Below, one piece after another: positions 51,641 through 56,521 of a stretch of 64,000 nt of DNA. Origin of the DNA: an uncultured Alphaproteobacteria bacterium (lineage in GTDB: Bacteria > Pseudomonadota > Alphaproteobacteria > Rs-D84); assembly GCA_944389185.1 (NCBI GenBank), contig CALXLL010000003.1, positions 12,754 to 76,753 on the forward strand. Reading direction: 5' to 3'. The notes beneath the pieces were generated by a model. That model was not told where the DNA came from. It was given only the letters and a program-made list of their open reading frames with translations, and made no database searches. The first letter of the stretch is position 1; every line of letters begins with the position of its first letter. The translations under genes and the position numbers were made by a program.

Positions 51641-52129
51641 ATGAGAACTCGGGCAGTATATATATATAAAACCAATTTTTACGAGCCTAGATATAAAGAG
51701 TTCTATAGCCGAAAAGATTTAGAACAATTTTTGTCTGAATTAGATTTTATGAAACCTCATTTAAAAACTTGCTATTCTGTTGGTTTACCAGAGTTTCAAT
51801 TAGGTAGTTGCTTGGTAGTTTATAAAGACGGTGAATGCTGTCGTTCCGATATAAAATGGGGGCCAAGGTTTATGATAGGAAATAATATAAGTGTTGATAA
51901 AGACGGGCATATATTTGTTGATATAGCTATGGATAGAATAGAAAACGGTGAAATATTAATCCAAAGAGATTATAAAAAAACAAAATTAAATAAAAATAGA
52001 ATTGATGCGATAATATCGTCTGATAGTCATAGTCAGATTTGGCCGAAATGTGACAGGTGGAAAAAGACGGTTTTTATAAAGTTCTTAACACAAGTTGGTA
52101 AACAAACACTAAGCATGGCGCAATATTAA
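51641..52129 (+). CDS. hypothetical protein (orphan), translationally coupled to truB
   Basis: 162 aa with no recognisable motif. Starts 11 nt after the mutS stop, and its stop overlaps the truB ATG (TAATG). Confidence 0.5.
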   Translation: MRTRAVYIYKTNFYEPRYKEFYSRKDLEQFLSELDFMKPHLKTCYSVGLPEFQLGSCLVVYKDGECCRSDIKWGPRFMIGNNISVDKDGHIFVDIAMDRIENGEILIQRDYKKTKLNKNRIDAIISSDSHSQIWPKCDRWKKTVFIKFLTQVGKQTLSMAQY

Positions 52130-53014: not shown

Positions 53015-53287
53015 ATGTCCGTAACTAAAGAAAAAAAAGCTGAATTAATCAGCTCGTTCAAAACGACAGAAAAAGATAACGGTGGTTCTGCTGCATCACA
53101 AGTTGCAGTTTTGACGGAACGCATTCGTAACTTAACCGAACATATGAAAGCGAATCCAAAGGACGAGCATTCAAAGCGCGGTTTGTTGTTTATGGTAAAT
53201 CGTCGTAAAAAGTTGCTGGCTTATATAAAGAAGAACAGCACAGAAGAATACGAAGCTTTGATTAAAAAATTAGGTCTTCGTAAATAA
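53015..53287 (+). CDS. rpsO: 30S ribosomal protein S15
   Basis: Start reset to MSVTKEKKAELISSFK (ATG 53015). ...SQVAVLTERIRNLTEHMKANPKDEHSKRGLL.MV.RR is the S15 signature. Confidence 0.92.
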   Translation: MSVTKEKKAELISSFKTTEKDNGGSAASQVAVLTERIRNLTEHMKANPKDEHSKRGLLFMVNRRKKLLAYIKKNSTEEYEALIKKLGLRK

Positions 53288-53315
53288 AAATGGGGCTTTC
53301 GCCCCTTTTTATTTT
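53288..53315. terminator. bidirectional intrinsic terminator (rpsO / Cys-rich gene convergent)
   Basis: AAAAAT-GGGGC-TTTC-GCCCC-TTTTTATTTT. Confidence 0.7.
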
Positions 53316-53584
53316 GAGTAATGACAATCAGAAGTATAAGTAAAAGTTCCTGTTTCATCTGTCATAATTGTCCCTGCCGGAATATAACAAGCGGTATAAT
53401 CCGTATTATTACCATCGTCAGATGTTCCTGGTGACGGGCATTTTTCACATAATGTCATACTTGCTTTGTTTGTAAGGTAATAACCTTTTTTACAGGCTGT
53501 ATAATTTTTTGTGTATACAGTGCAGTCGGCTATCGCCATTTCAGCAAAGGACATACAAAATAAAAATATTATAGTCTTTTTCAT
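53309..53584 (-). CDS. small secreted cysteine-rich protein
   Basis: 91 aa. Signal peptide (MKKTIIFLFCMSFAEMAIA) and 6 Cys in the mature part. AGGAG Shine-Dalgarno 7 nt upstream. Confidence 0.65.
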   Translation of the reverse strand: MKKTIIFLFCMSFAEMAIADCTVYTKNYTACKKGYYLTNKASMTLCEKCPSPGTSDDGNNTDYTACYIPAGTIMTDETGTFTYTSDCHYSK

Positions 53585-53603
53585 TTATAACTCCTGTTGC
53601 GTT

Positions 53604-53966
53604 TTAGTCGAGTTGACATTTCATGCACTCTGATTGAGTGGATACAGATTTTTTTTCAAAACACTGGTATTGTTTTGTGGTTGGATTACACGTCCCATAA
53701 GTAACAGTATAATATCCTGTTGTGTCTGAACCGGTAGAGTCGCTTCTTGCGCAAATACCGCTTACATTTAAATGCCAACCATCAGGACAAGTTCGAGTCG
53801 TTCCGTATTCGCCTGTAGGGCAGCAATAACCAGTATATCCGGCACAGCAATCTTCAGAACTCATACACGTGCTAATTGGAGGTAAAAGCGCCCAAGAGTT
53901 ATGTGAAATAAATATCAGCGATATAAAAATCCCTGATAATATCATATGTTTTTTCATTTGTTTCAC
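53604..53966 (-). CDS. small secreted cysteine-rich protein
   Basis: 120 aa. Signal peptide (…LIFISHNSWA) and 11 Cys in the mature part, including CC doublets. AGGAGTG Shine-Dalgarno upstream. Confidence 0.65.
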   Translation of the reverse strand: MKQMKKHMILSGIFISLIFISHNSWALLPPISTCMSSEDCCAGYTGYCCPTGEYGTTRTCPDGWHLNVSGICARSDSTGSDTTGYYTVTYGTCNPTTKQYQCFEKKSVSTQSECMKCQLD

Positions 53967-54210
53967 TCCTATGTTTTATCGCGTTGATAAAATTGAACCG
54001 CCAAGAAAATCAAGGCGGCAGGAGGTTGGAAACAATATCAAAGAATTGTGTCGTTTATTTTTTATATTCACGACCCCCCTGCCTGTTATGACAGAGGTAG
54101 TTTTTCGTCGTTTTCAGACGCTTTGATAAAGGGTTTCCACACCCCGATGCTAAAACTCTTAGCATCGCCGTAATTATATAAAAGTATTTTTTATATATCT
54201 ATTAAAATAT

Positions 54211-54238
54211 TTGCAAACAGGTAAATATTTCTTATAAT
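54211..54238 (+). promoter_or_regulatory. sigma70-like promoter for pnp
   Basis: TTGCAA (54211-54216), 16-nt spacer, TATAAT (54233-54238). Confidence 0.5.
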
Positions 54239-54247
54239 CATAAAAGT

Positions 54248-54312
54248 GCGAAGGAGAAATTGTTCTTTCTTGTGCTTGGGCAAGAGCATAAAAACGAATA
54301 ATTTTTCTTCGC
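54248..54312 (+). promoter_or_regulatory. long imperfect hairpin in the pnp leader (candidate RNase III / autoregulation site)
   Basis: GCGAAGGAGAAATTGTTC (54248-54265) pairs with GAATAATTTTTCTTCGC (54296-54312), with G-U pairs and one bulge. There is an inner stem CTTG/CAAG. It lies between the promoter and the pnp Shine-Dalgarno. Confidence 0.45.
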
Positions 54313-54352
54313 GTTAATAATTAACTTAACTAAAAAATATGGAGAAAAATAT

Positions 54353-56521
54353 ATGTTATTTGGTTTATTTAATAAAGATGATAAAAAACATCTAAATAAC
54401 CCAGTTGCAATTGAAATCCCTTATGGGGATGAAACTTTGCGTTTGGAAACTGGGCGTATGGCAAAACAAGCAAACGGTTCTGTTCTGGCTACTATGGGTG
54501 GAACTATGGTGCTGGCAACGGTTTGTGCAGAAAAAACTGCCGTGGAAGGTCAAGATTTTTTCCCTTTAACCGTTGATTATCAAGAAAAATTCGCTTCTGC
54601 GGGGCGTATACCTGGTTCGCGCGATAGACGCGAAGGTAAAGCTTCTACGGGTGAAACTTTAATTGCAAGATTGATTGATAGGCCTATTCGTCCTTTGTTT
54701 CCTGAAACATTTAAGAATAAAGTTCAAATAATAGCCCAGGTATTTTCTTATGATAAAAAGAATCAACCTGATATTTTAGCCATGATTGCGTCCAGCGCGG
54801 CTTTGGCTTTGTCTGGCGTTCCTTTCCAAGGGCCGATTGGCGCGGCTCGCGTGGGGTATATGAACGGGCAATACATATTAAACCCTTCTAAAAAGCAAGT
54901 AGAAGAATCTGAAATGGATTTGGTTGTTGCAGCTACGAAGGACGGCGTGTTAATGGTTGAATCTGAAATCGGCGAATTAGACGAAGCTACTACTTTGGGC
55001 GCTGTTAAATTCGGTTTTGACGCTCAGCAGGTTGTTATTGATGCTATTAATGAATTTGCCGAAAAAGCCGGTAAAGAACGTTGGGCCGTTCCTGAAAAGT
55101 CCGATGAATACGTTGCTATGGAAAAAGATTTTGAATCTTTTGCGGGTGACATAGAATCTGCTTTACAGATTAAAGAAAAGCTTGTTCGTTTAGATACTTT
55201 GGCAGAAATTCACGCAAAAGCCAAAGCCCGTATACCAGAGCTTTTCCCAGAAACAACAACAGCAGTATCAACCTTGGAATCTTGGGCAGACGAAATAGTT
55301 GAAGGTATTACCGCTAGGATTATGCGCGGTAATATATTGGCTGGCAAGCCTCGTATTGACGGTCGTGATAATAAAACAGTTCGTCCGATTGAAATAGAAT
55401 TGGGGGTATTACCGCGTGCTCATGGTTCTGCCTTGTTTACTCGTGGTGAAACTCAAGCACTGGTTTCTTTAACTTTGGGTGGTGGTAAAGATGCTTTACC
55501 AATTGAATCTTTGGACGGTGACGAAGAACGTGACTTTATATTAAATTATAATTTCCCTGGTTATTCCGTTGGTGAATGCAAGGGGTTAAAAGCACCTGGT
55601 CGTCGTGAAATAGGTCACGGTAATCTTGCTTGGCGTGCTTTGCATCCAATGGTTCCAAGCCGCAGCGAGTTTGATTACGTTATTCGCGTTGTTTCCGATA
55701 TTTTAGAATCTAATGGTTCTTCTTCTATGGCGACAACGTGCGGTGCTACGCTTGCAATGATGGACGGTGGCGTTCCTTTAAAGCGTCCTGTCGCAGGTAT
55801 TGCTATGGGATTAATCAAAGATGGTAAAGATTACGCTATTTTGACGGATATTTTAGGGGACGAAGATCATCTTGGTGATATGGACTTTAAGGTAACCGGA
55901 ACAAAAGAAGGTATAACAGCTTTACAGATGGATATCAAAATCACATCTATTACTTTCGAAATTATGGAACACGCTTTGCAGCAGGCAAAAGAAGGTCGTA
56001 TGCATATCTTGGGGAAGATAGAAAAAGCCATTAAAGCCCCGCGTAAGCACGTTTCTGAGTTTGCACCGCAAGCATACACAATTAAAATCAATCCAGATAA
56101 AGTTCGTGACGTAATAGGCAAGGGTGGTTCTGTTATCCAAGCTTTGACGCGTGAAACGAATACTCAGATTGATTTAGAAGACGATGGTTCTATAAAAATT
56201 ATGGCTACGACGCAAGAAGAAGCCGAAGAAGCAATGAGAAGAATAAAAGAAATCGTTGCAGAACCAGAAGTTGGTGTAATTTACGAAGGAACGGTTTCTG
56301 GTGTAAAAGACTTTGGTTTATTTGTAAAGATTTTGAACGGATTTGAATCTATGGTTCATATTTCTGAAATTACGGGTGAAAGATTGGCCAAGATTCAAGA
56401 CGCTAAATTGAAGGAAGGCGATAAAGTATTCGTGAAATATCTTGGGGTAGATAAGCGCGGTAAGACACGTTTATCTATGGTAGGTATAGACCAGAAAACA
56501 GGTAAAGAAATCGCAAAATAA
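54353..56521 (+). CDS. pnp: polyribonucleotide nucleotidyltransferase (PNPase)
   Basis: 722 aa. Two RNase PH domains, then KH (KIRDVIGKGGSVIQAL-like) and S1 (GTVSGVKDFGLFVKI) domains. Confidence 0.93.
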   Translation: MLFGLFNKDDKKHLNNPVAIEIPYGDETLRLETGRMAKQANGSVLATMGGTMVLATVCAEKTAVEGQDFFPLTVDYQEKFASAGRIPGSRDRREGKASTGETLIARLIDRPIRPLFPETFKNKVQIIAQVFSYDKKNQPDILAMIASSAALALSGVPFQGPIGAARVGYMNGQYILNPSKKQVEESEMDLVVAATKDGVLMVESEIGELDEATTLGAVKFGFDAQQVVIDAINEFAEKAGKERWAVPEKSDEYVAMEKDFESFAGDIESALQIKEKLVRLDTLAEIHAKAKARIPELFPETTTAVSTLESWADEIVEGITARIMRGNILAGKPRIDGRDNKTVRPIEIELGVLPRAHGSALFTRGETQALVSLTLGGGKDALPIESLDGDEERDFILNYNFPGYSVGECKGLKAPGRREIGHGNLAWRALHPMVPSRSEFDYVIRVVSDILESNGSSSMATTCGATLAMMDGGVPLKRPVAGIAMGLIKDGKDYAILTDILGDEDHLGDMDFKVTGTKEGITALQMDIKITSITFEIMEHALQQAKEGRMHILGKIEKAIKAPRKHVSEFAPQAYTIKINPDKVRDVIGKGGSVIQALTRETNTQIDLEDDGSIKIMATTQEEAEEAMRRIKEIVAEPEVGVIYEGTVSGVKDFGLFVKILNGFESMVHISEITGERLAKIQDAKLKEGDKVFVKYLGVDKRGKTRLSMVGIDQKTGKEIAK

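Follow-up and report, generated by a model that had tools for sequence, protein, structure and literature searches.

A leader-preceded operon for two paralogous cysteine-rich mini-proteins, one of them hypervariable, between rpsO and pnp of an uncultured gut alphaproteobacterium

Why do two small genes, read from the opposite strand, lie between rpsO and pnp in an uncultured gut alphaproteobacterium of the Rs-D84 lineage, and what might their products do? The window considered here is the whole stretch of 64,000 nucleotides that was analysed, i.e., contig C3:12754-76753 of a source genome of 796 kb that is distributed over 15 contigs and 97% complete; the locus is present in more than 30 metagenomes and is seen mostly in those of the chicken gut. 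An earlier note on this DNA had regarded the two genes as an insertion that interrupts a near-universal gene junction. Here, p117 and p91 denote the two proteins encoded in the gap, and labels beginning with G and L denote related genomes and retrieved contigs or loci, respectively. The description that is well supported by our analysis is that of a conserved, leader-preceded operon for two paralogous mini-proteins of a genus-specific family, one of which is hypervariable. Going one step further, we consider it probable, if not strongly so, that this is a resident, riboregulated operon for exposed or secreted binding proteins, neither filler nor a fresh insertion. New here are the finding that the two genes form a paralogous pair and the strong variability of p117 among strains.

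The elements of the locus are as follows, in window coordinates:

53015–53287, plus strand: rpsO (ribosomal protein S15), left border of the gap; Pfam Ribosomal_S15, E 1.1e-30
53292–53305, common to both strands: bidirectional terminator hairpin GGGGCTTTCGCCCC, shared by rpsO (plus) and the p117-p91 operon (minus), with a T-run on each side
53309–53584, minus strand: p91 open reading frame (ORF), 91-aa precursor
53604–53957, minus strand: p117 ORF, 117 aa from ATG (53604–53966, 120 aa from GTG)
54173–54201, minus strand: promoter-like site of the cassette, TAGATA, 17 nt, TATAAT; 10 of 12 matches in a consensus scan, kept at orthologous loci, a candidate start
54211–54352, plus strand: pnp promoter TTGCAA, 16 nt, TATAAT (54211–54238; consensus scan), back to back with the cassette promoter, and pnp leader hairpin
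54353–56521, plus strand: pnp (polynucleotide phosphorylase, PNPase), right border of the gap; two Pfam RNase_PH domains, PNPase, KH_1 and S1

The gap between rpsO and pnp measures 1065 bp, in agreement with the earlier estimate of about 1.07 kb, and is occupied by the two minus-strand ORFs. The stop codon of p117 lies 19 nt before the start of p91, and we therefore treat the two genes as an operon. Each gene is preceded by the ribosome site AGGAG, at 53595–53591 for p91, 6 nt ahead of its ATG, and at 53970–53966 for p117. Given that the GTG at 53966 overlaps the AGGAG, that the ATG at 53957 lies 8 nt beyond this site, and that every p117 homologue starts with MKKHM, translation of p117 most likely begins at ATG 53957, yielding 117 instead of 120 aa. 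Because the hairpin at 53292–53305 is terminator-like on both strands, it would serve both rpsO and the operon. The cassette is accordingly located where the earlier note had placed it, between the rpsO terminator (53292–53305) and the pnp promoter (54211–54238) and leader.

Both proteins are predicted to be exported. Read by eye, their N-termini display the features of Sec type I signal peptides, namely, a basic, K-rich start, a hydrophobic core of 10–15 residues and an A-x-A end as the small-x-small site, with no lipobox; cleavage would fall between NSWA and LLPP and between AIA and DCT, that is, between MKKHMILSGIFISLIFISHNSWA and L and between MKKTIIFLFCMSFAEMAIA and D. The signal peptide of p91 (~19 aa) is followed by a mature part of 72 aa with 6 Cys, and that of p117 (~23 aa) by 94 aa with 11 Cys. 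The mature parts of p117 and p91 consist of 16% and 19% Thr, 10% and 7% Gly, and 7% and 11% Tyr, respectively, and are Ser-rich too. Thus, the earlier description of two minus-strand genes with signal peptides, strong Shine-Dalgarno sites, 6 and 11 cysteines and an abundance of Thr, Gly and Tyr was accurate. By a crude count, the number of Cys after the signal peptide is odd in most members of the p117 family, 11 in 60 and 9 in 29 of 140; the odd Cys may be unpaired, as a free thiol, or may serve in an intermolecular bond. Among the genes of the source genome are one for a membrane-anchored, DsbA-like protein with the site CPYC (C4:17227-17742; L142 1195-2019) and a single one for a secretin. 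No outer-membrane or surface sorting signal was recognised in p117 or p91.

What are these proteins related to? Searches of both against Pfam and NCBIfam yielded nothing above threshold, and p117 was without any match. The p91 sequence contains C46-E-K-C49-P-S-P-G, which conforms to the cysteine motif C-x2-C-P-x-G of Ephrin_rec_like (PF07699), a disulfide module of ~48 residues. The C-x2-C-P motif is kept in 13 of the 14 aligned relatives of p91, the remaining one, a paralogue from the same genome, having G in place of the proline. The paralogues of p91 in its own genome carry the module as the C-terminal part (55–65 residues) of secreted proteins of 130–293 aa, following the pattern C..GYY..C-x2-CP..G...CYIPAGT..D.TG.F.....C.Y, and such cysteine-rich repeats also make up a 766-aa protein encoded there. 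The AlphaFold2 (AF2) model of mature p91, with a predicted local distance difference test (pLDDT) score of 94–96, is a disulfide-stapled beta-hairpin ladder, and its top Foldseek matches in PDB are uniformly of the tumour necrosis factor receptor (TNFR) type, including CD40, CrmE, HVEM and EDAR, in addition to the cysteine-rich domain of the calcium-sensing receptor. The p91 profile produced no match among PDB sequences, and no match to TNFR_c6 was found for p91. Accordingly, p91 models as a single TNFR/ephrin-receptor-type cysteine-rich module. The model of mature p117 (pLDDT ~90) is all-beta.

Profile–profile comparison with hhalign connected the p117 and p91 families at 95% probability (E 3.5e-8), pairing CCPtG..CPsGW..C.R..SDsTGyY with C.aGyY..CP.G..CYipagt.sD.tGtF, so that the operon appears to encode two diverged copies of one module, and p117 and p91 are, by their profiles, distant paralogues. 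The p117 family, which is unnamed, comprises 152 clusters (50% identity) at E <= 1e-3 and 111 at E <= 1e-10, nearly all of them of 95–170 aa and matched over their full length; in a sample of 251 genomes of the order, it is present in 35, which all fall in 1 of 26 genera, with 1–9 copies per genome. As to the homologues and paralogues that the earlier note had proposed to look for, p91 has paralogues in its own genome and weak TNFR-type fold matches; p117 is single-copy in its own genome and has no fold match. Two groups of apparent relatives of p117 were set aside. The giant proteins P0099, P0176 and P0207, with Thr/Ser-rich strands of the SpaA_4 or CHU_C type, are spurious, compositional matches, and the bovine ultralong CDR-H3 antibody knobs, marginal matches of the p117 profile in PDB (E 0.001–0.4), were taken to reflect shared Cys/Gly/Tyr/Thr composition rather than homology. 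The literature search turned up nothing on cysteine-rich proteins in Rs-D84, nor on secreted bacterial proteins of such a TNFR-like kind. The likeness to the Ephrin_rec_like (formerly GCC2_GCC3) and TNFR domains resides in the C-x2-C-P-x(1-2)-G motif of p91 and in its disulfide-stapled beta-hairpin ladder. Unlike these domains, however, p91 stands alone as one module with a signal peptide of its own and is not one of several repeats arrayed on a receptor; p117 is too diverged for any fold match, and both proteins are bacterial and belong to one genus.

The two paralogues differ conspicuously in how they vary among strains. Compared with the strain represented by contig L115, for which the background divergence is 0.5% (8 of 1539 nt in pnp and 2 of 395 intergenic nt), p117 differs at 13 of 354 nt, that is, ~7 times the flanking divergence, and 13 of the 13 changes are nonsynonymous. 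Among seven alleles, at least 32 nonsynonymous and 11 synonymous events were counted in p117, compared with 7 and 25 in pnp, truB, rpsO and orf162 pooled (Fisher p = 7.5e-6). Seven pairs of p117 alleles have a synonymous divergence (dS) of 0 with 2–12 replaced codons, at pnp dS values of 0.02–0.04, and the ratio of the nonsynonymous divergence (dN) of p117 to the dS of pnp is 1–2.4. All variable sites of p117 are at residue 25 or beyond and none is a Cys, whereas the signal peptide is invariant among strain alleles; the fixed residues are the cysteines plus a few Gly, Trp and Tyr. In the 90% cluster, ~12 distinct mature p117 alleles contrast with 3 RpsO alleles on a similar number of contigs, and mature p91 is far less variable than p117. 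Some p117 alleles (variants P0030, P0033 and P0048) are mosaic, in that their signal peptide and mature part come from different types. A 4.5-kb contig from run X25 matches the window on both sides of 293 nt over mature p117 (within 53597–53891) that are too divergent for alignment at 90%; this contig carries an equal-length allele replacement between conserved flanks. The overall ratio of nonsynonymous to synonymous (N:S) changes in p117, 32:11, nevertheless equals the neutral expectation of ~3:1, and much of the signal is accounted for by relaxed constraint on the loops, with no need for positive selection; signs of more than neutral change come only from the allele pairs with dS = 0 and from the 1–2.4 fold excess of p117 dN over pnp dS. 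It is safe to say that the scaffold of p117 is strictly conserved while its loops change at a rate equal to or above the neutral one; that p117 is under positive selection is likely, not proven.

This pattern resembles that of hypervariable surface and secreted proteins, such as variable adhesins and antigens, in which scaffold and signal peptide are conserved and the loops are hypervariable and recombine. By contrast with these, p117 is tiny (94 mature residues) and contains no repeats or phase-variation tracts, and there is no diversity-generating retroelement and there are no silent cassettes near its gene. Would non-exposed proteins behave in this way? If p117 and p91 were structural or chaperone-like proteins of the periplasm or the inner face of the envelope, the variability of p117 would reflect weak constraint on its loops, in keeping with its neutral N:S ratio; Sec export alone ends in the periplasm, no signal for sorting to the outer membrane or surface was recognised, and this reduced genome is full of cysteine-rich envelope families. 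However, a divergence of ~7 times that of the flanks in a close strain pair, with 13 of 13 changes nonsynonymous, sits poorly with this alternative, and the exchange of allele segments by recombination around a fixed signal peptide is a pattern typical of exposed proteins. A secretin is present, and folds of this class are usual in extracellular binding domains. Taken together, we regard an unexposed envelope role as unlikely, albeit the most probable of the alternatives.

Alternatively, the variability could stem from an arms race with competitors, the pair being a secreted antibacterial, such as a bacteriocin-like two-peptide system, or another toxin. The proteins are small, predicted to be exported and disulfide-rich, their family is patchy, multi-copy and genus-restricted, the genes are usually paired, and the alleles are hypervariable and mosaic among strains, all of which would suit a toxin. 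Yet no immunity-like membrane protein, ATP-binding cassette (ABC) exporter, processing protease or lysis gene lies beside the cassette or the related loci that we examined, and both proteins have ordinary Sec signal peptides. Neither Pfam nor NCBIfam yielded a toxin match (the PADLOC library was not searched), the p91 module recurs as the C-terminal domain of larger surface-type proteins, and the folds closest to it belong to receptor-type binding domains rather than to pore formers or enzymes. With regard to the effector, adhesin or toxin suggested in the earlier note, the evidence favours a binding or contact protein over a toxin; we consider a toxin distinctly improbable, and more so than an envelope role.

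Upstream of p117, the transcript would open with a leader RNA of ~209 nt, counted from the promoter-like site. Its minimum free energy (MFE) of -70 kcal/mol corresponds to z = -5.9 and was equalled by 0 of 200 shuffled sequences. The leader of more than 200 nt with several hairpins, as discerned in the earlier note, was confirmed, including GATGCTAA..TTAGCATC at 54146–54166 and CCGCC..GGCGG at 53998–54002 and 54015–54019. It is divided as follows:

54084–54166, minus strand: 5′ domain, with hairpin H1 (54146–54166), the conserved GGGGUGUGGAAACCC and UAUCAAAG, a second small hairpin and the segment CCUCUGUC
54009–54083, minus strand: sRNA-Xcc1-like core (Rfam RF02221), in which P1 (GGCAGGGGGG / CCUCCUGCC) closes two hairpins
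53985–54019, minus strand: terminator-like hairpin and tail, GCCGCC (54019–54014)..GGCGGU (54002–53997), then UCAAUUUUAUC; kept in 6 orthologous leaders and formed in the MFE fold

The core scores 37.7 bits against sRNA-Xcc1 (E 4e-5 on 461 nt), short of the gathering score of 53, and aligns with RF02221 model positions 1–87 end to end, including the architecture of two hairpins closed by P1. Among the copies of the element, P1 displays compensatory changes (GGUCGGGGGG/CCCCCGACC, GGUUGGAGGG/CCUCCAACC and GACUGGGAGG/CUCCCAGUC). A scan with the RF02221 model recovered 42 similar, sub-threshold copies (27–51 bits) in 17 of 41 related genomes and 0 in 14 control genomes, and in nearly every copy an ORF starts 26–47 nt 3′ of the element, its product usually bearing a signal peptide. 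Outside the window, a strict pattern search of the source genome detected at least 4 further near-identical copies of the core (GUCAGGAGGG...CCUCCUGAC), at C5:39125-39191, C5:43441-43507, C5:50334-50400 and C10:10675-10741, so that the leader family is multi-copy in this genome; two of these four lie 47 nt upstream of genes for fibre-like secreted proteins of 492 and 751 aa (MRKLFAGLLLG...). In the related genome G019, about half of the 12 Xcc1-like copies are within ~800 nt of a contig end; the element or its surroundings is repetitive enough to break the assemblies of G019.

The six orthologous leaders align throughout. Seven of the 8 base pairs of H1 vary yet stay paired, 6 of them by changes on both sides. 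Across species in which p117 identity is only 33–45%, the leader's 3′ half remains 100% identical. Two folds compete. In the MFE fold, the 5′ domain pairs with the Xcc1-like part and the terminator-like hairpin is formed. Forcing the Xcc1-type P1, the 3′ strand of which shares 3 nt with the 5′ arm of the terminator-like hairpin, raises the energy to -59.7 kcal/mol from -70, at a cost of ~10 kcal/mol, and half of that hairpin is lost; the segment CCUCUGUC is able to pair with the 5′ strand of P1, and it is this alternative pairing that the MFE fold uses. This behaviour fits a predicted terminator/antiterminator switch that would be 'off' by default. As in attenuation leaders and riboswitches, two mutually exclusive folds are predicted, with a terminator-like hairpin just upstream of the ribosome site, and the leader sequence is more conserved than the gene that follows. 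Unlike in those systems, no ligand, leader-peptide, tRNA- or protein-binding motif was recognised, and the leader matches no Rfam riboswitch.

The sRNA-Xcc1 family was first described in an integron cassette of Xanthomonas campestris and is found upstream of symE in Xanthomonas cassettes. The 3′ half of the leader resembles it in the G-rich/C-rich P1 that closes two hairpins and in its position upstream of a gene that is probably controlled. The present element differs in being embedded within a leader of ~209 nt, where a 5′ domain and a terminator-like hairpin compete with P1, and in being chromosomal, multi-copy and located before genes for secreted proteins rather than symE; no trans-acting role is implied.

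Is the cassette, then, an insertion into a junction that is otherwise intact? In six genomes from other families of the order, rpsO and pnp are spaced by 180–470 bp, and two related genomes, G008 and G012, have a short spacer of 169–200 bp and no cassette. In G017, a 606-bp spacer contains a p117-type gene only, whereas in G018 ~9 kb separate rpsO from pnp. In most other species of the genus, the two genes are 9–47 kb apart, often inverted, or reside on separate contigs, with assorted housekeeping genes upstream of pnp. Hence, the junction, termed near-universal in the earlier note, is not so in this lineage, and its interruption here is unremarkable because it is routinely broken. On a separate note, the 975-bp spacer of G014 (L062, G014:C13) contains a same-strand, kinase-like gene of ~250 aa (MFIKTFATNLLCGFIPSK...), relatives of which (L024 2047-2793; L138 310-1047) are located in G022, beside the cassette, and in G003, upstream of pnp; different species seem to have gathered different accessory genes 5′ of pnp.

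The p117-p91 pair occupies the rpsO-pnp gap in the metagenome contigs L113 (p117 59–65% identical), L112 (52%), L143, L144 and L145; three short contigs, L115, L116 and L146, cover a portion of this layout. Where rpsO is no longer nearby, as in G013 and G022, the pair has nonetheless kept its place divergent from pnp. Furthermore, seven loci from other gut metagenome-assembled genomes, the hosts of which include rabbit, roe deer and Hadza human samples, comprise a p117-type gene followed within 20–130 nt by a p91-type gene, most with the leader upstream; one of them is the G013 copy beside pnp, and the other six occupy other positions. Overall, a p91-type gene follows directly in 16 of the 21 p117-type loci that we examined. 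Judging from these sequences, the recurring unit is the leader, the p117-type gene and the p91-type gene, duplicated to several positions within genomes of the genus. One of the seven loci, with leader, p117-type and p91-type genes, is on L121 (CAVGNU010000016.1), a contig titled Bacteroides fragilis, which is probably a mis-binned gut alphaproteobacterial contig.

A recently acquired mobile insert, integron-cassette-like or transposon-borne, could account for a spacer ~0.9 kb longer than in G008 and G012 and for the occurrence of the unit at several loci in some genomes, the more so as sRNA-Xcc1, the nearest Rfam family, has been described on integron cassettes, transposons and plasmids. Nonetheless, no insertion scars (flanking direct or inverted repeats, an attC-like site, an integrase or a transposase) were found at the cassette, which occupies the same site in lineages whose p117 proteins are 52–65% identical, with dS saturated, and remains linked to pnp after rearrangements. 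Given that the family is confined to one genus, the source of the unit would be internal duplication rather than import. The insertion claim of the earlier note therefore stands in one respect, the cassette being an addition to an ancestral junction with spacers of 170–470 bp elsewhere, and falls in another, that addition being neither recent nor mobile. The order of gain and loss could not be read from pnp: PNPase is ~92% identical to that of the window both for G008, which lacks the cassette, and for L112, which has it, so that the two are equidistant. At the other extreme, the two frames might have arisen by chance or belong to decaying genes, and so be non-functional filler. No homologue carries a name, and a stop codon was counted inside the p91 match in two relatives (TGA in G013 and TAA in G022). 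But neither frame is broken in any strain examined, most of the examined species keep both intact, the ribosome sites are strong, the leader is conserved, and the AF2 models are confident despite shallow alignments. Across species, Cys and motif residues are invariant over saturated dS at dN/dS of 0.1–0.3 with intact frames, and the genes are for these reasons considered functional. The comparison of spacers among relatives that the earlier note had called for thus showed presence in some and absence in G008 and G012. Both of these alternatives are largely excluded; a mobile insert is very improbable, and the chance that the genes are filler is close to negligible.

We return to the resident, riboregulated operon for exposed or secreted binding proteins, which could work as follows. 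From the promoter at 54201–54173, transcription would produce an RNA that opens with the ~209-nt leader. In one fold, more stable by ~10 kcal/mol, the 5′ domain would pair with the 3′ part and the terminator hairpin would form; in the other, an sRNA-Xcc1-like three-way junction would take part of the 5′ arm of the terminator. Some signal would shift the balance between the folds and decide whether p117 and p91 are transcribed. Sec would export both proteins by way of their type I signal peptides, and oxidation in the periplasm, probable given the encoded DsbA-like CPYC protein, would turn them into small, disulfide-held stacks of beta-hairpins. In a putative complex, p117 would present the variable face, an exposed binding or antigenic surface whose loops are exchanged by recombination, and p91 would be its conserved partner or anchor; the odd number of Cys in p117 (11) may mean a covalent link. 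The pair would act outside the cytoplasm, contacting the host, a partner cell or phage. We infer this function from the fold class, the pattern of variability, the pairing and the presence of the p91 module at the C-terminal end of larger secreted proteins.

Several results weigh against this reading, beginning with the neutral overall N:S ratio of p117 discussed above. With respect to fold, p91 scores 14.2 bits against Ephrin_rec_like (E 0.039), under the gathering threshold of 23.1, and its TNFR-type matches have E values of 0.18–1, probabilities of up to 0.84 and TM scores of ~0.35, while for p117 Foldseek found no match in PDB and BFVD (best E 2.0–2.5). With respect to regulation, the leader terminator is weak, with a 6-bp stem, an 11-nt loop and an interrupted U-tail, and was not called by a terminator pattern scan, and the long-range pairings of the leader are invariant and show no covariation. 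Pairing is not obligatory, since five p117-type genes, one in G017 and four in G003, have no p91 partner, and the gene in G017 also lacks the leader. As for oxidation, DsbB (Pfam PF02600) was searched for in the source genome and not found. Finally, the traces of expression consist of a 179-nt contig inside p117 and another over rpsO in a chicken-gut metatranscriptome, at low depth, with no strand information and with carry-over of DNA possible; metagenomic libraries labelled 'RNA-Seq' probably contain DNA.

In a bolder variant, p91, alone or with p117, would be a soluble TNFR mimic, as in the case of poxvirus CrmE, i.e., a secreted decoy for a TNF-superfamily cytokine or similar trimeric ligand of the vertebrate gut (chicken or other), with p117 as a strain-variable partner under host immune pressure and the Xcc1-like leader switched by a host-derived cue. 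We deem this variant a long shot, slightly less probable even than a mobile insert.

The surroundings of the operon present features of their own. The ORFs near the gap are mutS, orf162, truB, rpsO, pnp and ybaB. The orphan 162-aa gene at 51641–52129, between mutS and truB, occupies the same position in L113, L143, L144 and L145 and exists in 4 sequence variants on ~53 contigs, so that it is a real gene. The -35 boxes of the cassette promoter (minus strand, 54201–54196) and the pnp promoter (plus strand, 54211–54216) are 9 bp apart, within an imperfect palindrome at 54200–54227, and the two divergent promoters may share regulation or compete. The pnp promoter and leader are also kept in the species G008, G012 and G014, which lack the cassette. 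Within the pnp leader, a long imperfect hairpin at 54240–54330 (GCGAAGGAGAAATTGTTC ... GAACGAATAATTTTTCTTCGC) is kept with or without the cassette (G008, G012, G014, G013, G017 and G022), and its conservation is consistent with retained autoregulation of pnp. Compared with the rpsO-pnp operon of the Escherichia coli type, with its RNase III-processed pnp leader, rpsO likewise has a terminator of its own, and pnp has kept a promoter and a long leader hairpin that is shared across the genus, but in most species of the genus rpsO and pnp are not neighbours. With a convergent operon and a bidirectional terminator between them, rpsO and pnp are unlikely to be co-transcribed by read-through here.

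Uncultured gut Alphaproteobacteria of this kind, a group called Candidatus Enterousia (order Rs-D84) in the literature, have genomes of 0.7–1.1 Mb from which most biosynthetic pathways are missing, and must live off partners (PMC12306168), a description with which the source genome agrees in size, habitat and class. The interruption of the rpsO-pnp junction is itself minor, this junction being routinely broken in the genus; what matters is that the locus offers a compact handle on how these bacteria contact their partners. It encodes two very small proteins, expressible and amenable to structure solution, one of which combines a conserved scaffold with strain-variable loops, and a structured RNA probably gates their transcription. 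A cysteine-rich module of the repeat type would thereby be used as a stand-alone, riboregulated and strain-variable pair. The locus is also a clean instance, at the scale of a single gene, of an sRNA-Xcc1-like leader, the function of which has been a question since 2010. If p117 and p91 are indeed the variable and constant halves of a contact or recognition module, this would identify what these bacteria bind, and would explain the heavy investment of such tiny genomes in cysteine-rich exported proteins.

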